DNA from: a virus
Taxonomy: Duplodnaviria; Heunggongvirae; Uroviricota; Caudoviricetes
Direction: 5' to 3' (one strand)
DNA: 26,747 nt
IMG/VR virus record: IMGVR_UViG_2778261499_000013
Span: 1 to 26,747 of that record
Shown here: piece after piece, positions 1-23,251 of the stretch
Layout: each line of letters starts with the position of its first letter
How positions within the stretch are numbered: position 1 is the first letter of the stretch
Position numbers and translations under genes: made by a program
Notes under the pieces: model-generated
Database searches by the model: none
The model's input: the letters and a program-made list of their open reading frames with translations, nothing else
Told to the model about the DNA's origin: nothing

Positions 1-1158
1 ATGCTCACCGTTAAGCAGATTGAAGCAGCAAAGCCGAAAGAAAAACCATACCGCCTTCTCGATGGTAATGGCCTGTACCTTTATGTTCCTGTATCCGGGA
101 AAAAGGTATGGCAGCTTCGCTACAAGATTGACGGTAAGGAGAAAATCCTGACCGTCGGAAAATATCCGCTTATGACTTTGCAGGAAGCAAGGGATAAGGC
201 ATGGACTGCGAGGAAAGACATCTCGGTTGGCATCGATCCGGTAAAGGCGAAAAAGGCTTCGTCTAACAACAATTCATTTAGTGCGATTTACAAGGAGTGG
301 TACGAGCACAAGAAGCAAGTCTGGTCAGTAGGCTATGCAACTGAACTTGCCAAAATGTTTGATGACGACATTTTACCCATCATCGGCGGCCTTGAAATTC
401 AGGATATTGAGCCGATGCAACTGCTGGAAGTAATCCGCAGATTTGAAGATCGCGGCGCAATGGAGAGAGCCAACAAAGCCCGCAGAAGATGCGGCGAGGT
501 TTTCCGTTACGCTATTGTTACTGGTAGGGCTAAATATAACCCGGCACCTGACCTTGCTGACGCCATGAAGGGATACCGCAAGAAGAACTTCCCGTTTCTT
601 CCTGCCGACCAGATCCCGGCATTCAACAAAGCACTGGCAACATTTTCAGGAAGTATTGTATCGCTCATTGCGACCAAAGTTTTACGCTACACAGCCCTAA
701 GAACGAAAGAGCTTCGTTCCATGCAATGGAAGAACGTCGATTTTGAAAACAGGATTATCACTATCGACGCCAGTGTGATGAAGGGCCGCAAGATTCATGT
801 TGTTCCTATGTCAGACCAGGTGGTTGAACTTCTCACTACGCTAAGCTCAATCACCAAACCAGTCTCAGAGTTTGTTTTTGCCGGGCGCAACGATAAGAAG
901 AAGCCAATCTGCGAGAACGCGGTATTGCTTGTGATCAAACAAATTGGCTATGAAGGGCTGGAAAGCGGTCACGGATTCAGGCATGAATTCAGCACGATTA
1001 TGAACGAGCACGAATGGCCTGCTGATGCTATTGAAGTGCAACTGGCACATGCCAACGGCGGATCTGTGCGCGGTATTTACAACCATGCGCAGTATCTCGA
1101 TAAGCGCAGAGAAATGATGCAGTGGTGGGCGGACTGGCTTGATGAAAAGGTGGAGTGA
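1..1158 (+). CDS. int: Tyrosine site-specific integrase, P4/Sf6-type
   Basis: 385-aa ORF starting at base 1; N-terminus MLTVKQIEAAKPKEKPYRLLDGNGLYL and C-terminal region GHGFRHEF...HANGGSVRGIYNHAQY resemble P4-family phage integrases (catalytic R/H/Y region). Confidence 0.9.
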   Translation: MLTVKQIEAAKPKEKPYRLLDGNGLYLYVPVSGKKVWQLRYKIDGKEKILTVGKYPLMTLQEARDKAWTARKDISVGIDPVKAKKASSNNNSFSAIYKEWYEHKKQVWSVGYATELAKMFDDDILPIIGGLEIQDIEPMQLLEVIRRFEDRGAMERANKARRRCGEVFRYAIVTGRAKYNPAPDLADAMKGYRKKNFPFLPADQIPAFNKALATFSGSIVSLIATKVLRYTALRTKELRSMQWKNVDFENRIITIDASVMKGRKIHVVPMSDQVVELLTTLSSITKPVSEFVFAGRNDKKKPICENAVLLVIKQIGYEGLESGHGFRHEFSTIMNEHEWPADAIEVQLAHANGGSVRGIYNHAQYLDKRREMMQWWADWLDEKVE

Positions 1159-1236: not shown

Positions 1237-3399
1237 TTATTCACATAAAGATATTGATGCCAATATAAACATTGCAAGTTCGTCATATCTTATACCATAA
1301 CTTTCACAAAAGATATCTATATTTCCAGTCATGTGTTCGCGATGCGTTTTATCGTGACACCAAAACCCATACTTACTAGGATCAAGTCCGTGCTTCCTCA
1401 TTATATTACCAACAGTTTGAGCTCCAACACCAAAATGCCACCTAGCACCATCAAATCCCTTTACCTCAACAGAATCCAGCATCTTAAACTTTTTAATATT
1501 ATCTTTTATTTCTAGTGCAGCTTTTTTTTCAGCAACATCAATGTCTGTTAGTTTTGTTTTCAACATTTCATTTGATGTATTTATCATTCCTGTAGTTGCA
1601 TATATTGTTTTATATCTCGCATCCGGCCCACCAATATCAAAAGCATTATCAATTTGTGGTGTAATTTTCCCATAATGAAAGAATAATTCATGCTCACTAT
1701 TACCTATAGCTACAGTATTCTGAGCGGCAATTACCCCACTACCGATAGCTACTGCGTTACTTCCGGTTGATTTTGTATTATCTCCGAGAAGGACGCAGTT
1801 TGTCACATCTGTAGCCTGCTCTGACACGTTACCAGAATTAGAACCTAAAAATACATTGAAAGATCCAGCCGTTACTTTAAACCCTGCATCGAATCCAATA
1901 CCAACATTATCAGATCCTGATGCAGAATATAGCGCCTCGTAACCTATAGCTGTATTATTATTACCTAACGCGTTGAAACCCGACTTAGCCCCTACCGCAA
2001 CACAATACTGGATAGACACCCCCGTAGGAAAACTGGAATTACCGCCACGTAACGCATATTCACCAAAAGCGGTGTTCTCATTACCAGCACTGTTGTGATA
2101 CAAGGCCTGCACACCTGCCGCAGTATTCCCAAATCCTGTTTTGTTATACCTGTTAGTATCATTACCAATACCAGTATTACCGTAGCCTGTTGTGTTTGCA
2201 CATAACGCAAAAACCCCAACCGCTACGTTATCAGAACCAGATACGTTAGCTCTTAGAGAATCAGCACCGTATGCACAATTGTTTTTACCAGTCTTATTGT
2301 TTTCCATAGACTGAATCCCAGACGCGGTATTTGCGTATCCTGTAGTGTTTGAGTGCAAACTCTTCCACCCATATGCGGTATTGTTAGCTCCTACGTTTCC
2401 ACCGCCTAATGAGTCTTTTCCAGCGGAAGTATTAGTATCATTGTTTCCGCTAACATTAAAAATAACGCTTCCTGATTTAACGATGCTGCCACTTCCTGTG
2501 TTTATTACTGATGGATTGGAAGGAATGAAAAATGACCATGAGTCATTTACTGTATGTCCAGTGGTTGAAGAAAAGTTTATCTTCAATCCACTTACGAAAA
2601 AATCCACCCCACCTGCAAGTATTACGATTGGTTGCTGAGATACACTGTCATCGATTGGGTTGTACACGTCTATCGTGTCACGCCATGTAACTCCATTATC
2701 TGTACTGAATTCAAGCTTATCAGGATTTGAAGCTTCTTTTATTCTTACAATTGCATTTAGATCTTGCTGTCCATTGTATATTCCTGACACGGTCATGTCG
2801 TTAACACCAGAGCCAGAATATTTAGTCTGGTAATTAATCACTACTATGCCAGGCCCCCAATATCTCTTATTTAAGTTAATATTATTTACATTATAAATAC
2901 CATCAGGAATGTATATGTCATTGAATTCTGATATCTCTGCATCGTTAAATGCCTGCGTATTGTTTGTTAATCCATCACCAATAGCACCAAAAAAAGTAAT
3001 AGGCTTCGAAACACCACCTATCAATCCTGCTCCACCAGATGATTCAAGCTCCAACCTTAATTGATCCGGCTCATACTTCAACACATTAGGAAAATAGAAC
3101 TGCTGTGCACCATATACATCATAAACAGCCATAGAATGGCCTTGCACAGTTACGAATTTGGCAATCTGTCCGTTATATACAGGGTAACCAGCGGCGTTAA
3201 TGATGATTGGTTGCGAAACAGGAACGTGAGAACCGTCTTCGTTCTCTACATAAACCTGAATCTGGTTTTCAGGATTTACCGGGTCAGTGTCAATTTTACC
3301 GATATAAATTTTTCCATTAGCTACGGCTTTAAAAGAACGAGCCATAGTGAAGAGTTGCGAAGGCATACTCACTACAACATTGGCTGTAATGTCTGTCAT
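1237..3399 (-). CDS. Tailspike/tail fiber: P22 gp9-like head-binding N-domain, Gly/Asn/Thr-rich repeat domain, C-terminal chaperone-like domain
   Basis: 720-aa ORF; N-terminus [46 protein letters not shown] closely matches my recollection of the P22 tailspike head-binding domain; central GNTxxG/NTAxG repeats; C-terminal ~100 aa ([26 protein letters not shown]...) resembles intramolecular chaperone domains of endosialidase-type fibers. Confidence 0.85.
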
Positions 3400-4452: not shown

Positions 4453-4722
4453 TCAACGTTTTTCCACTTCATTTTGAATTTGCTTAAGTAGCATATTTGT
4501 CTCGTCAAGCCTCTTGTTAATACGGTCAAGGCTTTCTACTAAATCGTTATGTGCATGTGATACTTCGTAATTTGAGACTGATTTTTTTTCCTCTATCGTC
4601 TTTGTCAATCGTTCCCCTGATTGATACATATTGATTAACGATGTAAAAATCACGAGCAAGCAAACTACAATGATTGCGCCAGACAAAAATTGTAAAGAAC
4701 GATCAAGCAATGACACCTTCAT
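4453..4722 (-). CDS. Small membrane-anchored coiled-coil protein inserted between arc and ant
   Basis: 89-aa ORF; its ATG overlaps the arc stop (ATGA); hydrophobic segment [21 protein letters not shown] followed by a charged, heptad-like C-terminal region; no family recognised. Confidence 0.6.
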
Positions 4723-4891: not shown

Positions 4892-4912
4892 ATAGGTCCA
4901 CCGTGGACCTAT
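4892..4912. promoter_or_regulatory. Mnt operator (perfect 21-bp palindrome)
   Basis: ATAGGTCCACCGTGGACCTAT is a perfect palindrome containing the P22 Omnt core AGGTCCACCGTGGACCT. Confidence 0.85.
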
Positions 4913-4940
4913 TGAGAATATAGTAGAGTGCTTCTATCAT
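4912..4940 (+). promoter_or_regulatory. Pmnt-like promoter
   Basis: Plus strand TTGAGA (4912-4917), 17-bp spacer, TATCAT (4935-4940); overlaps Pant divergently; GGAG Shine-Dalgarno 7 nt before the mnt ATG. Confidence 0.55.
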
Positions 4941-4967: not shown

Positions 4968-5225
4968 ATGGCTAGAGATGATCCGCACTTTAACTTCCGT
5001 ATGCCTTTGGAAGTAAGAGAAAAATTGAAATTAAGAGCCGAGGCTAACGGAAGGTCAATGAACTCTGAGTTATTACAAATCGTTCAGGATGCTCTCTCAA
5101 AGCCATCACCGATTGCAGGCTATCGCAACGAAGCTGAACGCTTGGCTGATGAACATTCGGATATCGTAAAAAATATGGTATTCGAAACTTTAAAAAAACT
5201 TTATGGAAAAGAAAAGAATGAGTAA
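4968..5225 (+). CDS. mnt: Mnt maintenance repressor (ribbon-helix-helix)
   Basis: 85-aa ORF MARDDPHFNFRMPLEVREKLKLRAEANGRSMNSELLQIVQDALSK... matches my recollection of P22 Mnt almost residue for residue. Confidence 0.92.
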   Translation: MARDDPHFNFRMPLEVREKLKLRAEANGRSMNSELLQIVQDALSKPSPIAGYRNEAERLADEHSDIVKNMVFETLKKLYGKEKNE

Positions 5226-5487
5226 TAAAGAGCTTGTTAAAAAATCAAATAACTGTGTCGATGCATATGCTGACTCATTTGGATACTCTTCGTTTGGTGA
5301 CGGTTCCCAGCGATTAGGTTCAATTTCTTTTTTTCATAATGTAACTGAATGGCCTGTTGATGAAAGCGGTGATGTTGAAAACATAAAGTACAATATTGCC
5401 ACCATTAGAATGCCTGAAGAATTGATGCTTAAATTGGCGGACTTCATTCGCGACCAACATTATAAGGCTAAAACAAACGAGTCGTAA
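5218..5487 (+). CDS. Hypothetical small protein with Arc/Mnt-like RMPEEL segment
   Basis: ORF overlapping the mnt 3' end (ATG at 5218 preferred over 5203 by purine-rich upstream context); C-terminal NIATIRMPEELMLKLADFIRDQ resembles the beta-strand and first helix of Arc/Mnt. Confidence 0.5.
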   Translation: MSNKELVKKSNNCVDAYADSFGYSSFGDGSQRLGSISFFHNVTEWPVDESGDVENIKYNIATIRMPEELMLKLADFIRDQHYKAKTNES

Positions 5488-5490
5488 TCA

Positions 5491-5940
5491 ATGATGAAAC
5501 ACGATTATTACGAAGCTCCAAATCTAACTGAAAAGCTTGAACAAGCGGAAAAATCATCATCTTTGTACACAAATCCAATTTCTCAGTCATCAGGAATGTC
5601 TGGCATGAATATGGGCATGCTACAATCAAGTGGTGGTGGAGCTGGGAGTAACAACATGCTTGAGGCTAGGGTTGCACGGTTAGAGGCAGATGTTGAAAAC
5701 ATTAAGACCAATCTATCTGAGGCAAGGTCTGACATCTCTCGTTTGCGTGATATCTCAGCTGATACATCCAGAGATGTTGCGGTGGTCCTGCAAAAAATAG
5801 TAGATGTAGACGAAAAATTATCAAAAAAACCGAGTAAGAGCGAAGTCCAGACATTGATATCTTCTGCAGTAAACAAGCAAATACTATGGACCATAGGGAC
5901 TGGATTTGCTCTTTTAGGGATAGCTAAATATATATTTTAG
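5491..5940 (+). CDS. Hypothetical tail-anchored coiled-coil membrane protein
   Basis: 149 aa; Ser/Gly/Met-rich low-complexity N-terminus, heptad-like central region (LEARVARLEADVENIKTNLSEARSDISRLRDI), single C-terminal hydrophobic helix ILWTIGTGFALLGIAKYIF; starts 3 nt after the previous stop. Confidence 0.6.
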   Translation: MMKHDYYEAPNLTEKLEQAEKSSSLYTNPISQSSGMSGMNMGMLQSSGGGAGSNNMLEARVARLEADVENIKTNLSEARSDISRLRDISADTSRDVAVVLQKIVDVDEKLSKKPSKSEVQTLISSAVNKQILWTIGTGFALLGIAKYIF

Positions 5941-6009
5941 CTCACCTCATCAGCTATCTTCTTGTTCCATTCACTCAGTGCCACTGCAAGGAAAACTAAG
6001 GAGGTTAGT

Positions 6010-6399
6010 GTGAAGCGATTTCTTGCTGGTATGTTTTTATTCATATCTTTTGGGGCTACAGCAGAATGCTGGGTTGTTGGAGATATGCGCGGAATAAGCT
6101 ATTCAGAACGAAATAATTTCCAACCGGAAGAAGATGGTTTTAGTGGAACATTTATCATTAAGACAAGCGGTGAAGATGCCAGCATCACATATTCTGGGAC
6201 GGATGCTGGCGGCATGGCTTACAAAGCATTGTCTAAAAACTCCATCATAGGAATCGGCGCGAATGGCGAAACTCAACGAGTTATCGACTCATGGGTAATA
6301 CATCCTAATGGAACAGTTTTAATGTCGAAAACCATTTCTGGTTATGGAAACATGGATTCAACCAAAGCTTTTGTTGGAAAAGTAAAAAGAAAATGTTAA
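6010..6399 (+). CDS. Hypothetical secreted (periplasmic) protein
   Basis: GTG start 5 nt after a strong Shine-Dalgarno TAAGGAGGT (5997-6005); predicted signal peptide KRFLAGMFLFISFGATA with AxA cleavage site; mature protein about 110 aa with Cys near both ends. The ORF-track ATG at 5962 lacks a Shine-Dalgarno. Confidence 0.6.
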   Translation: MKRFLAGMFLFISFGATAECWVVGDMRGISYSERNNFQPEEDGFSGTFIIKTSGEDASITYSGTDAGGMAYKALSKNSIIGIGANGETQRVIDSWVIHPNGTVLMSKTISGYGNMDSTKAFVGKVKRKC

Positions 6400-6423
6400 C
6401 GATTGAATCCAATTTCCCATACG

Positions 6424-8265
6424 TTACTGCTGTGTTGCCTCAGTGGCAAGCAGCGGTCTGATGGCATTTGCAGCGTTACTTAATGCTCTTTCATAGGCTG
6501 GCGTTCCAGCTTTAGTGTTTGCCAGACGTAAGAGAGCATTCCTTGCTGCTTTGGACTCATACAAGCGCATCATTGCACCGAAACCAGCCTCAAGCCCCAT
6601 TGATACGCCAAGAGTCGCAGTTGCGCCAATCGTCCTTATCCTATTGGCTTGCGATTGCCCCGTCTGAGTTACTACATTTGCGGTGTCTGACCTTGCTGTT
6701 TGCTGTAGAACTTCATGAAGAGCATCAAGCTCTTTCATGTGCTTTCCAGAAAAAATAGTGTTGTAAATTTCACCGCCTGACTGAGATTTCAGCTTATTAA
6801 CTTCAGTGATGAACTTGGCTGGAGAGTCACCGGCCTTTTCCGCTATTTTGCTGACGTAAGCTGCACGCATAGCATCTTTCCCTTTATCATCCAATGCGCT
6901 CCAGATTCGTTTCACGTCAGATGGTTTTCTGCTTAATACAACGGTATTTATAAGTTCAGGACTGGCTTCACTGCTTGCCTTGTTGAGCTTGTTAGCAATG
7001 TTTTTATTAAGCACCTTATTATAAACGTTTGCATAATCGGAATTTGCTTTAAGGTATTTTGCTGCGTCTGATGCACCGAGGTTTTTTGCAACTGCGTTAC
7101 GAAGATCTTTTGACATTGCATTCTCTACCATATTGGTAGCTGCTTTTGCCTGGTTGGGGAAGACCATAGCATCTCCCTGAACATTAGATCTAAATGCTGT
7201 TCTGTGCTGACGCAAGAGATCAAACGTAACATCCAAATCAGTTGCAGGGTTTGCTAATTCTTCACGTAGGTTACGCAAGGATGTAAGCAGGCTTTGATTG
7301 GCAGACGTCCCAAGCCGTTCCTGTCTTGCGATCGCTGTATTCAGAGCATTCATGGTATTTGTGGTATCAACTGCGGCATTACCCATTTTATTGGTGACGT
7401 CATTGATAACAGCGCCAGCGGCATCCTTCCGCCCCCTTAACGTGGTGGTCAGAGATTTCACCACATCATCAGGGTTGTACTCACCAAAACGGTCAAAATA
7501 ATTGCTTACCAGCTTACTACGCGTTGCATATTGCTCCGCACGCTTTGAACCTGTCCCTAGCAAAGCCCCCTCAGCATCCTGAGTAAGGCCACGAGTGAAA
7601 GCATTTTTCGGCGTGATTACATCAGATGTCATAGGTGTCACGCCCATCGATTCTGATGTGGCAATTTTTTTCGCTACTTCTGGCGCAATATCGCCTTTTA
7701 TAGCCGTTATTCCACGACCTATTCCCTTTGCTGCTGCGGAAAGAACACCCTGAGCAGCAAGGTTAACTCCGGCATTTTTAGCTGCATTTTGTGCGAAATC
7801 GCCTTTCTGATTTGCGGCCTCTGCCAGTGATCCAATAGCCATGCTTCCTGCCGTTCCAACTCCTGGAACTAAATACCCGCCAATTGTTTCTCCAGCTTGC
7901 GCATAAGGGTCTGTTGGTCGATCTACTGGACGATAGACATCGTCCAAAACCTTGGGGCCACCAAGCCCCTGGCTGATTGCATTAATCAGACTTGCGCCAC
8001 CCTGCAATACGTCAAATGGTATGTTTACCAGACCACGACCAGCCTGCTCTGCAATTTGCCCTGCACTTTGACCACCTGTGAGCCAATCGCCAGCTTGTTG
8101 CATCAATGATGGTTCTTCACGTGCTGGTTCATTATTGGCCTGATTAACTGTTTGTTGCTGAACAGCCTGACCAGCAAAATACTCATCAATGGCGGTGCCA
8201 ATATCTTCCGTGCTCGTACCATCAGGGAAGGTAAATGTCTTACCGTTTGCAGTTACTTTCATCAT
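6424..8265 (-). CDS. Ejection/internal virion protein, P22 gp16-like
   Basis: 613-aa ORF at the position and size of P22 gene 16 (609 aa), last gene of the late operon; start overlaps the upstream stop. Confidence 0.8.
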
Positions 8266-22006: not shown

Positions 22007-22471
22007 TCAAAGGCATTGCGTCCTGATGTATTCCTGAAGCGTTCTCAGTGCTGTTTGGTCGCGGATAATTCCGTCCCGGATATCGAGAACGTTTCGTCCA
22101 GCAACTGAAGAGAGTTCGACGGTGGCCTCATTGCCCATGCCGGAGGAGCTGGAGGTTTTGGCTGAGGCTGGCACAGGGCATTTTCCTTTGACGAGCACCC
22201 GACCACCATTATCAAGCTTGCGCCGAAGAGCATCATTTTCAGCTTTCGCATCAGCTAACTCCTTCGTGTATTTAGCATCGAGTGCATCAGCATCACGCTG
22301 GCGCTGTTGCATGTCAGTAATGGTGGCGTTCGCCAGCTTCAGCTCACTGACTTTTTTATCGCGCTGCTCTTTGTAGGTAATGGCGTTATCACGGTAATGA
22401 TTAACAGCCCATGACAGGCAGACGATGATGCAGATAATCAGAGCGGAGATAATCGCGGTTACTCTGCTCAT
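22007..22471 (-). CDS. Rz: Spanin inner-membrane subunit Rz
   Basis: 154 aa; N-terminal 90 aa ([34 protein letters not shown]...) near-identical to lambda Rz as I recall it; C-terminal half diverges. Confidence 0.9.
22045..22251 (-). CDS. Rz1: Spanin outer-membrane lipoprotein Rz1
   Basis: 68-aa ORF embedded in the +1 frame of Rz; [21 protein letters not shown] has a lipobox (VVGC), followed by a Pro-rich segment [11 protein letters not shown] as in lambda Rz1. Confidence 0.8.
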
Positions 22472-22944
22472 ACCTCAATCTCTCTGACCGTTCCGCCTGC
22501 TTCTTTGAATTTTGCAATCAGGCTGTCAGCCTTATGCTCGAACTGACCATAACCAGCGCCCGGCAGTGAAGCCCAGATATTGCTGCAACGGTCGATTGCC
22601 TGACGAATATCACCGCGATCAATCATAGGTAAAGCGCCACGCTCTTTAATCTGTTGCAGTGCCACAGCGTCCTGGCTTTTAGGAGAGAAGTCTTTCAGGC
22701 CAAGCTGCTTACGGTAGGCATCCCACCAACGGGAAAGAAGCTGGTAGCGCCCGGCGGCTGTTGATTTGAGTTTGGGGTTTAGCGTGACAAGTTTGCGAGG
22801 GTGATCGGAGTAATCAGTGAATAGCTCTCCGCCAACAATGACGTCATAACCATGATTTCTGGTTTTCTGACGTCCGTTATCAGTTCCCTCTGACCACGCC
22901 AGCATATCGAGGAACGCCTTACGTTGATTATTGATTTCCACCAT
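22468..22944 (-). CDS. R: Endolysin, lambda R-type lytic transglycosylase
   Basis: 158 aa, [51 protein letters not shown]... essentially identical to lambda R as I recall it. Confidence 0.95.
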
Positions 22945-23251
22945 CTTCTACTCCGGCTTTTTTAGCAGCGAAGCGTTTGATAAGCGAACCAATCGAGTCA
23001 GTACCGATGTAGCCGATGAACACGCTCGTTATATAAGCGAGATTGCTACTTAGTCCGGCGAAGTCGAGAAGGTCACGAATGAACCAGGCGATAATGGCGC
23101 ACATCGTTGCGTCGATTACTGTTTTTGTAAACGCACCGCCATTATATCTGCCGCGAAGGTACGCCATTGCAAACGCAAGGATTGCCCCGATGCCTTGTTC
23201 CTTTGCCGCGAGAATGGCGGCTAACAGGTCATGTTTTTCTGGCATCTTCAT
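22928..23251 (-). CDS. S: Holin/antiholin, lambda S-type with dual start
   Basis: 107 aa [43 protein letters not shown]...; Met1-Lys2-Met3 dual-start motif (ATG at 23251 and 23245); upstream CCCC-UUAUU-GGGG hairpin (23259-23271) like the lambda sdi structure; 3' end overlaps R. Confidence 0.95.

Follow-up and report, generated by a model that had tools for sequence, protein, structure and literature searches.

A modular two-gene prophage cassette with a predicted tail-anchored coiled-coil protein: a possible Rex-like anti-phage module of the lysogen

INTRODUCTION

In lambdoid phages the interval between cI and N is a mosaic hotspot that holds rexAB and bstA (PMC8585504), and in P22-like phages the interval from gene 16 to gene 9 holds sieA, whose product is a protein of 164 amino acids (aa) that has several membrane helices and acts alone (PMC10883804). 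Here we analyze a gene of the second interval, orf149, in a stretch of Caudoviricetes DNA of 26,747 nucleotides (nt) (positions 1 to 26,747 of IMG/VR record IMGVR_UViG_2778261499_000013; this whole stretch is called the window below). An initial annotation, made from the letters of the DNA, had described a coiled-coil membrane protein with a possible part in exclusion or abortive infection. That annotation treated the gene alone and missed its partner, as orf149 is the second gene of a translationally coupled two-gene prophage cassette (orf94 and orf149) that is mobile among unrelated temperate phages. We tentatively read this cassette as an anti-phage module of the lysogen, a Rex-like version, and an exclusion or abortive-infection role is the best inference from its position and anatomy.

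The cassette comes closest to RexAB in position and two-part logic and to SieA in the slot that it fills, and it is a member of neither. Like lambda RexA and RexB, it is a soluble and a membrane gene pair directly downstream of, and co-oriented with, a prophage repressor, and homologues of orf149 occupy the rexAB slot itself in HK544, in VT1-Sakai and in Klebsiella, Enterobacter, Pectobacterium and Yersinia prophages. However, neither orf149 nor the partners match the RexA or RexB of PADLOC, and the soluble partner is small (about 90-170 aa) and drawn from several unrelated families. RexB is polytopic, whereas in the orf149 protein a long coiled coil is combined with a single C-terminal helix. 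Further pairs of a cytoplasmic and a membrane protein, from mycobacteriophage and Gordonia prophages (Sbash gp30/31, CarolAnn gp43/44 and Butters gp30/31), reportedly act against heterotypic phages and are called Rex-like; their membrane components are reportedly polytopic, and their hosts are unrelated to those of the present cassette.

With P22 SieA the cassette shares the interval, from the ejection gene 16 to the mnt/tailspike (gene 9) region of P22-like prophages. Both supply a membrane protein from a lysogen-expressed region, and the cassette is present where sieA is absent. They differ in that type A SieA of P22 shows no homology to orf149 (tblastn E > 2) and in that orf149 encodes a single-helix coiled-coil protein with an obligate-looking partner gene.

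RESULTS

The orf149 gene and its predicted product

The gene is present as first described, an ATG-initiated open reading frame (ORF) of 149 codons (Table 1). It is a real gene under purifying selection, because it is conserved in relatives and the ratio of nonsynonymous to synonymous substitution rates (dN/dS) over both cassette genes is 0.11-0.38 (0.14-0.38 for orf149 against diverged copies and 0.11 for orf94). Conservation and dN/dS rule out a chance ORF, and an antisense ORF at 5583-5894 is read as the shadow of the conserved plus-strand gene. A word-indexed search returned homologues in 57 clusters at 90% identity, while an exhaustive profile search gave 1208 representatives at E <= 0.001, 93 of them at E <= 1e-10. 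The profile hidden Markov model (HMM) of PHROG 3556 matches the protein over aa 1-149 at E=8.6e-59, and all 23 aligned relatives match PHROGs 3556, 12602 and 6136, none of which is functionally annotated.

The initial description of a disordered region, a coiled coil and a single C-terminal membrane helix is borne out by an AlphaFold2 model, by heptads and by hydrophobicity. In the model, calculated from an alignment of 37 sequences, a short helix (12-25) is followed by a region with a predicted local distance difference test score (pLDDT) < 50 (aa 26-51), a long helix (54-111), a break (112-115) and a final helix (116-148). Confidence is low (mean pLDDT 63, predicted template modelling score 0.24), as would be expected when one chain of an oligomeric coiled coil is modelled by itself. 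A single heptad register runs over aa 61-110, with hydrophobic residues at 14 of the 21 a/d positions from V61 to L110. The C-terminal segment ILWTIGTGFALLGIAKYIF has a Kyte-Doolittle mean of 1.57, which is borderline, against 1.8-2.4 for the equivalent segments of relatives. The low-complexity stretch that had been taken for the N-terminus is real but lies further in. The string SSGMSGMNMGMLQSSGGGAGSNNM (aa 33-56) comes after a conserved N-terminal segment of 30 residues and before the coiled coil, at a place that is poly-Gly in most relatives, and is a flexible linker rather than the N-terminus. Over the first 56 codons, low-complexity part included, dN/dS is 0.17, and the N-terminal part with this stretch is thus both translated and constrained.

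Conservation in the family peaks not in the membrane helix but at the end of the linker and in the first 30 residues of the coiled coil, GGGGGD-MLEARVAKLEADVENIKTNLSEAR. In the family alignment G52, A62, V68, I71, D81 and K113 are invariant, and M56, L57, R60, V61, L64, E65, E69, K72, E77, D95, V96, L100, Q101, K102, D107 and W133 are at least 90% conserved. The residues R60-V61-x-x-L64-E65 fit the trimerization motif R-hxxhE, because they sit at heptad positions g-a-x-x-d-e; this motif predicts parallel trimers strongly, though not without exception (PMC3653964). At the helix break, KKPSKSEV is replaced in relatives by KATKDDL, FATKADV, KAGKDFV or KPTADSL, and both KKPSKSEV and the ATKDD or ATKAD of the relatives seem to resemble the beta-layer motif [aliphatic]-A-T-K-x-[DE] of trimeric alpha/beta coiled coils (PMC4786415). 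Taken together, the motifs suggest that the protein probably forms a parallel trimer, which would bundle three Gly/Thr-rich membrane helices. With a partner that lacks a signal peptide and a membrane helix at the very end of the protein, the simplest topology would be tail-anchored with a cytoplasmic N-terminus; membrane anchoring is likewise predicted from the sequence.

Table 1. Positions in the window of the features of orf149, its cassette and the surrounding prophage
Feature	Position	Strand	Description
Integrase gene	1-1158		
Tailspike gene	1237-3399	-	With P22 head-binding domain
89-aa ORF	4453-4722	-	Between arc and ant; PHROG 27312 (unknown function)
mnt operator	4892-4912	.	Perfect 10+10 bp palindrome ATAGGTCCAC-c-GTGGACCTAT
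Pmnt-like sigma-70 promoter	4912-4940	+	TTGAGA-17-TATCAT; predicted
arc operator-like palindrome	4919-4939		Overlapped by the Pmnt-like promoter
Pant-like promoter	4945-4917	-	Divergent; overlaps the Pmnt-like promoter
mnt repressor gene	4968-5225	+	First gene of the unit; Arc-like ribbon-helix-helix domain (PF03869 E=1.4e-27) and Mnt C-terminal domain (PF11423 E=3e-16)
orf94	5203-5487	+	Cassette partner gene; PHROG 4231 (unknown function)
24-nt direct repeat	5371-5394 and 5689-5712	+	21/24 identical; 318-nt spacing in frame
orf149	5491-5940	+	Predicted tail-anchored coiled-coil protein of 149 aa; PHROG 3556 (unknown function)
aa 1-30	5491-5580	+	Partner-type-specific N-terminal segment; predicted helix 12-25; proposed partner-binding adaptor
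aa 31-55	5581-5655	+	S/G/M/N-rich, predicted disordered linker; counterpart of the poly-Gly linker of relatives; G52 invariant
aa 56-111	5656-5823	+	Predicted heptad coiled coil; first 30 residues (MLEARVA+LEADVENIKTNLSEAR) are the best-conserved part of the family
R60-V61-A62-R63-L64-E65	5668-5685	+	Fits trimerization motif R(g)-h(a)-x-x-h(d)-E(e)
aa 112-119, KKPSKSEV	5824-5847	+	Predicted helix break; K113 invariant; beta-layer-like motif
aa 131-149, ILWTIGTGFALLGIAKYIF	5881-5937	+	Predicted C-terminal membrane anchor, Gly/Thr-rich; W133 nearly invariant; last element of the protein
Neighbouring ORF	6010-6399	+	GTG start after strong AAGGAGG; signal-peptide-like N-terminus (MKRFLAGMFLFISFGATA/EC); PHROG 2651 (unknown function)
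Gene 16 (gp16) position	6424-8265		Ejection proteins gp7 and gp20 also in the prophage
Holin-endolysin-Rz cassette	22007-23251	-	Complete; strand opposite to orf149, 16 kb away

Modular organization of the cassette

Members of the orf149 family are paired with at least four partner families that have no detectable mutual similarity: PHROG 4231 (the orf94 type), the HK544_041 type, zinc-ribbon proteins with two CxxC pairs (PHROG 4293) and proteins of 138-172 aa (PHROG 5893). Between the orf94 and HK544_041 types, BLASTP and hhalign were both negative. Across loci, the segment ahead of the linker in the membrane protein co-varies with the family of the partner. The form MKHDYYE..LTEKLEQA..SGMSGM goes with an orf94 partner, a 60-residue GKLVVAYSD..EFSS domain with HK544_041-type partners, short DNV[IV]PF-like peptides with zinc-ribbon partners, and xVTxLRPG or NNVFxLPNG peptides with PHROG 5893 partners. 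Three types of C-terminal end, KQILWTIGTGFALLGIAKYIF, VWMLGILLLSIAMPVITFLLNLYLKKP and AILLGVPAIIAIGTGLY, are spread across the partner families, and the coiled-coil and membrane parts are swapped independently of the partner. We read the N-terminal segment as an adaptor for the product of the upstream gene, to which the co-variation suggests that it binds; the linker would be a tether, and the coiled coil with the membrane helix a common functional core.

A mosaic joint at aa 56/57 lies at the boundary between linker and coiled coil. Compared with locus L011, the partner is 95.5% identical and the N-terminal 56 residues of the orf149 protein 89%, but the remainder only 36%. Among complete E. 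coli genomes, four carry the whole cassette at >= 99%, whereas 151 further genomes match only query bases 3-461 at ~85% nt identity; these bases comprise orf94 and codons 1-57 of orf149 and end where the coiled coil begins. Beyond the joint, the variant of these 151 genomes (e.g. O26 RM10386, H19) has a different coiled-coil and membrane half with weak XhlA-type matches.

The two cassette genes also share a direct repeat (Table 1) that encodes DVENIK.N in both. The similarity of the two peptides continues over V-E-N-I-K-x-N-[LIM]-[AS]-[TE]-[IA]-R, which orf94 relatives retain, and a protein of 134 aa found in one E. coli (P0012) is exactly what an in-frame deletion from one repeat to the other would yield. 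The motif may reflect a common origin, mimicry of the start of the coiled coil or chance. In four loci with zinc-ribbon partners (L008, L014, L022 and L031), the N-terminal peptides DNVIPF, DNVVPF and NNVVPF resemble the C-terminal tail of E. coli SSB (DDDIPF); they are internal and not C-terminal, and the likeness may be a coincidence.

Cassettes behind the repressors of other prophages

HK544 and the Shiga toxin 1 (Stx1) prophage VT1-Sakai have a 93-aa ORF followed by a distant, 183-aa homologue of orf149 in the interval from cI to PL/N, where lambda has rexAB. In the depositors' annotation of VT1-Sakai, a terminator of the pRM transcript directly follows the homologue (H0053), and the VT1-Sakai homologues ECs2991/ECs2992 were seen on at least 1000 contigs. 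The order repressor, small ORF, homologue recurs in the lambdoid prophages of the four other genera named above, and other P22-like prophages have the order arc / mnt, partner, homologue.

For a census of the cassette, 80 loci were gathered by scans of genome contigs (5 loci) and viral contigs. At each locus ORFs were called, the family member was identified by HMM and the partner was taken as the ORF ending beside its start. Repressors were marked in two phmmer rounds seeded with annotated repressors, which is a crude detection, and start codons were assigned mechanically, so that individual distances are approximate. Once identical pairs had been dropped, 52 distinct cassettes remained, almost all from Enterobacterales prophages and not phylogenetically independent. 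In 41 of the 52, the partner is preceded by a co-oriented repressor-like ORF whose end is no more than 187 nt away (22 with a helix-turn-helix (HTH) plus an S24 peptidase, 16 HTH-only and cI-like, and 3 Mnt). From partner stop to target start the distance is -56 to +43 nt, and about half of the 52 pairs overlap or abut.

This compact arrangement, with a small soluble gene first, a membrane gene second and translational coupling, would also suit a toxin-antitoxin-like addiction module or a host-fitness moron with no anti-phage role, whose partner restrains a membrane-active small protein and which stabilizes the prophage or alters the envelope physiology of the host. The conserved membrane part and the variable neutralizing part agree with such a design, as does an expression that would come from a constitutive lysogenic promoter. 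We nevertheless hold this explanation to be improbable: several partner families, co-varying adaptors and domain shuffling are more typical of conflict systems, the loci examined are confined to prophages and mostly adjoin a repressor, and none of the 155 E. coli genome places of the cassette is on a plasmid. Many toxin-antitoxin modules are moreover defence systems themselves, so that this explanation overlaps with an anti-phage module.

The adjacency to repressors of three kinds could alternatively mean that the cassette is a regulatory accessory of the lysogeny switch, in which a membrane tether sequesters or releases a small regulator (the partner or an Ant/Arc-type protein) and so links the state of the envelope to immunity or induction. 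Membrane tethering of regulators is a known principle, orf149 lies inside immI beside mnt, arc and ant, and the cassette of Salmonella phage 29485 comes after a KilA-N (antirepressor-like) gene. Yet the same core stands behind unrelated repressors (cI with S24, HTH-only cI and Mnt), and this speaks against a partner specific to the repressor; a DNA-binding or repressor-binding domain was recognizable in none of the partner families; and many P22-like and lambdoid phages function without the cassette, with other genes in the slot. We consider a regulatory role quite improbable and return to the anti-phage module in the setting of the window itself.

The immI region of the window prophage

The window matches a prophage of avian pathogenic E. 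coli (APEC) O2-211 at 100% and is the P22-like prophage of that strain, in which gp10 and portal genes were identified besides the genes in Table 1. The minus strand of immI carries ant (with KilA-N and P22_AR_C domains), the 89-aa ORF and arc; mnt, orf94, orf149 and the ORF at 6010-6399 follow one another on the plus strand. The mnt gene has 85.5% nt identity to P22 mnt, and we take the operator palindrome to be the same sequence as P22 Omnt. The product of orf94 is predicted to be soluble, with a sheet of 3-4 strands followed by a C-terminal helix. The mnt and orf94 genes overlap by 23 nt, the orf94 stop lies 3 nt before the orf149 ATG, and no terminator-like site was predicted on the plus strand from 5225 to 6400. 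In P22 immI, Mnt is made in the lysogen, and genes riding behind mnt should therefore be lysogen-expressed; the cassette would then be transcribed from Pmnt. The initial assignment of the gene to an operon that should be expressed in the lysogen, and not to the late operon, is upheld by its co-orientation with mnt, the Pmnt-like promoter, the intact mnt and arc operators, the lack of a predicted terminator and the distance to the lysis cassette, and it is strengthened by the relatives that lie directly downstream of cI-type repressors.

The P22 map shows orf59 and sieA in this interval. Its two ends, at arc/mnt and at gene 16, recur among complete E. coli genomes, and between them the content varies, with P63C-domain, ClpP-like, transthyretin-like and other genes; the interval is a variable slot. 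A tblastn search with type A SieA of P22 gave no match in any cassette locus (best E in the window 2.6).

Occupation of the sieA slot bears on the main rival explanation, that the same lysogen module would act as superinfection exclusion at entry, without killing the cell. In that case the coiled coil would place the partner at the cytoplasmic face of the inner membrane, where it would disturb the conduit formed by ejection or tape-measure proteins or the incoming DNA, and the module would be functionally analogous to SieA, to HK97 gp15 or to SNIPE, a nuclease bound to the membrane. The cassette does fill this slot in a prophage without sieA, and membrane localization is common to entry blockers (PMC10883804; PMC13190303). 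The zinc-ribbon and PC4-like folds of partners would be compatible with nucleic-acid binding, which is a weak point in favour. Some copies are morons beside tape-measure or tail genes, like HK97 gp15. Nonetheless, almost nothing of the protein is predicted to be periplasmic and it has a single membrane helix, whereas SieA is polytopic. The same coiled-coil core occurs in podovirus P22-like and siphovirus lambdoid phages, which fits a generic effector better, and neither a nuclease nor another kind of enzymatic domain could be detected among the partners. We regard a block of entry as unlikely, and a Rex-like module that aborts infection continues to be our preferred reading.

Likeness to XhlA and DUF1640 proteins

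The initial annotation had also pointed to XhlA-like and DUF1640-like proteins. XhlA (PF10779; PHROG 937), a holin-associated protein of the Bacillus prophage PBSX, is like the orf149 protein a small protein with a coiled coil followed by a C-terminal membrane helix. This common architecture, together with weak matches to PHROG 937 ("hemolysin"; E=0.0019 for the orf149 protein and 3e-4 for two relatives) and a Pfam XhlA match of one of the 23 relatives (E=0.008), would speak for an XhlA-type or holin-associated lysis accessory that aids or times late membrane disruption. As homology, however, the link fails, since it consists of sub-threshold profile matches in a few relatives: Pfam gave no XhlA match for the orf149 protein at E <= 1, and the score of the relative P0039 (14.7 bits) is far under the curated gathering score (34.7 bits). 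The orf149 protein further differs in its extra N-terminal adaptor and linker and in being paired with a partner gene. We consider a lysis accessory very improbable and the weakest of the readings, because in every locus examined the gene lies outside the lysis cassette (and most often behind a co-oriented repressor), and because the prophage has a complete holin-endolysin-Rz cassette of its own on the other strand.

With DUF1640/CCDC90-like proteins (PF07798; trimeric, in prokaryotes and mitochondria) the family would share a coiled-coil stalk, a beta-layer-like motif and a C-terminal membrane helix, and this likeness is one of design. An hhalign comparison of the orf149 family with a 23-sequence DUF1640 alignment returned a probability of 1.4%, hmmscan found no DUF1640 match for the orf149 protein and only 16-18 bits for distant relatives against a cut-off of 33.5, and the DUF1640 head (FDT..Y..KL..AG, with invariant F7, D8, L16 and G20) has no counterpart in the family alignment. 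In L080 (96-1309), a small metagenomic contig, two genuine DUF1640/CCDC90-like paralogues and an integrase come after P0140, a distant member of the family, and at another locus (L079) the upstream partner is itself a paralogue with a coiled coil plus a membrane helix. Arrays of coiled-coil membrane proteins may thus exist outside Enterobacterales.

Database and literature searches

The initial annotation made no firm family assignment, and the Pfam search that it proposed gave only sub-threshold coiled-coil noise. Scans of Pfam, NCBIfam and PADLOC with the orf149 protein, its neighbours in the window and eight partner representatives gave the same kind of noise, which in PADLOC-DB 2.0.0 (2023) was PDC-S66 at E=0.042 for the orf149 protein and GajA and LmuB coiled-coil segments for the partner families. 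A sequence search of the PDB with the family profile found only generic coiled coils (best E=0.011). In large protein collections the source names of homologues are all "hypothetical protein" or "membrane protein", and no paper was found in literature searches on ECs2991/ECs2992 (for function in O157 Sakai), H0053, HK544_040/041, ECO26_0580 or PHROG 3556. The Tai system was rejected as a match, as HK544 is merely a test phage in the Tai paper and the Tai genes are located elsewhere; DefensePredictor and SNIPE are unrelated to the family as far as the main texts of these reports go. The orf149 family, the partners and the cassette are unannotated in every library searched, PADLOC-DB 2.0.0 (2023) among them. 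What is known is the lysogen-expressed pair of a soluble and a membrane protein at a repressor locus; what appears to be new is these proteins and their modular, tail-anchored coiled-coil design.

Neighbouring genes

The ORF at 6010-6399 is probably an independent secreted moron. It recurs at 96% nt identity in Salmonella phages Emek and ST-35, where it abuts gene 16 and the cassette is missing, and around its start the similarity of the window to UPF_BP1 stops (at about 6015) and that to phage Emek begins (at about 5992). It is thus a separate moron outside the cassette, with which it may be co-transcribed.

Two further features of the region were observed. The 89-aa ORF between arc and ant belongs to the Pant operon; its start shares ATGA with the stop of arc, its stop overlaps the earliest start that ant could use, and the P22 map shows nothing at this place. 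Its product, with an N-terminal hydrophobic helix followed by a coiled coil, is a second small membrane coiled-coil protein of immI. The tailspike has, in addition to its P22 head-binding domain, a weak match (E=3.9e-7) to an endosialidase catalytic-domain family, which suggests that the tailspike of this APEC prophage may be capsule-specific (K1-type, CUS-3-like).

DISCUSSION

An anti-phage module of the lysogen is favoured because the slots of the cassette hold prophage defence genes, because partner and adaptor co-vary and because shuffling occurs at the level of domains. Several unrelated partners with co-varying adaptors and shuffling are what is expected of a conflict system, in which a variable specificity subunit is combined with a constant effector. 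The anatomy lends further support, with its heptads, near-invariant R-hxxhE motif, Gly/Thr-rich C-terminal helix and soluble partner. The C-terminal half of the L011/P0021 and P0039 variant (of which only the L011 locus was examined) weakly matches XhlA-type families that are called "hemolysin" or are of unknown function.

Such a module could work as follows. The cassette would be transcribed in the lysogen from Pmnt, and the orf149 protein would trimerize and hold the upstream gene's product by its N-terminal segment. The variable partner would confer specificity, sensing or binding a component of the superinfecting phage, and the conserved coiled-coil and membrane part would be the effector, which the partner would keep silent until triggered, in a toxin-antitoxin-like arrangement. 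On triggering, the bundled membrane helices would permeabilize or depolarize the inner membrane and the infection would be aborted.

Several points weigh against this interpretation. No homology of the orf149 protein to characterised defence proteins was found, and PADLOC was empty for all partner families. Adjacency to a repressor indicates lysogenic expression at best, and not function. The 52 loci, nearly all in Enterobacterales prophages, are not independent of one another in phylogeny, and 11 of them have no adjacent repressor by the crude detection used, several of these lying among tail genes. The membrane segment of the window member is merely borderline hydrophobic, binding of the partner is suggested by co-variation only, and oligomeric state and topology are predicted from motifs. 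Finally, no computed result separates abortive infection from a block of entry. Here we lean slightly to a generic effector, because there is no periplasmic part and because one core serves in podovirus- and siphovirus-type prophages.

The cassettes without an adjacent repressor are informative rather than contradictory. In Salmonella siphoviruses 29485/S107 (L003) the cassette follows a KilA-N gene and stands between the gene of the major tail protein and the tape-measure region; in Yersinia pekkanenii (L019) it is flanked by two tail genes; and in Entomohabitans (L017) it is part of a tail-region island with Arc, an Mnt-like protein and an antirepressor. In two further exceptions the repressor is 0.6-1.3 kb distant, and in one the contig is truncated. 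The segments L003 2408-3797 and L017 2479-5447 are moron islands that hold KilA-N or antirepressor genes together with Arc/Mnt-like genes, and in some siphoviruses an immI-like block seems to travel with the cassette.

Beyond this locus, it is possible, if doubtful, that the more than 1000 clusters (50% identity) of the family are uncharacterised trimeric tail-anchored effectors armed by interchangeable sensors through a swappable adaptor, and that they make up a new class of prophage abortive-infection or exclusion systems, which has taken the place of RexAB in lambdoid prophages (the Stx1 prophage of E. coli O157:H7 among them) and, across Enterobacterales, that of SieA in P22-like prophages. 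The roles of the parts are already mapped by domain swaps that occur in nature, so that the sensor-effector logic is open to tests with chimeras. If the cassette is not a defence module, its second gene still encodes a very common lysogen-expressed membrane protein of pathogens. If it is one, its design would be unusually simple and modular (an adaptor peptide, a flexible linker, a trimeric coiled coil and one membrane helix), and it would account for the content of the rexAB and sieA slots in many prophages of enterobacteria, among them the Stx1-converting prophage of O157:H7 Sakai and the P22-like prophages of APEC, of O26 Shiga toxin-producing E. coli and of Salmonella. Defence modules of this kind shape the host range of phages and are relevant to phage therapy and to the spread of Stx phages.

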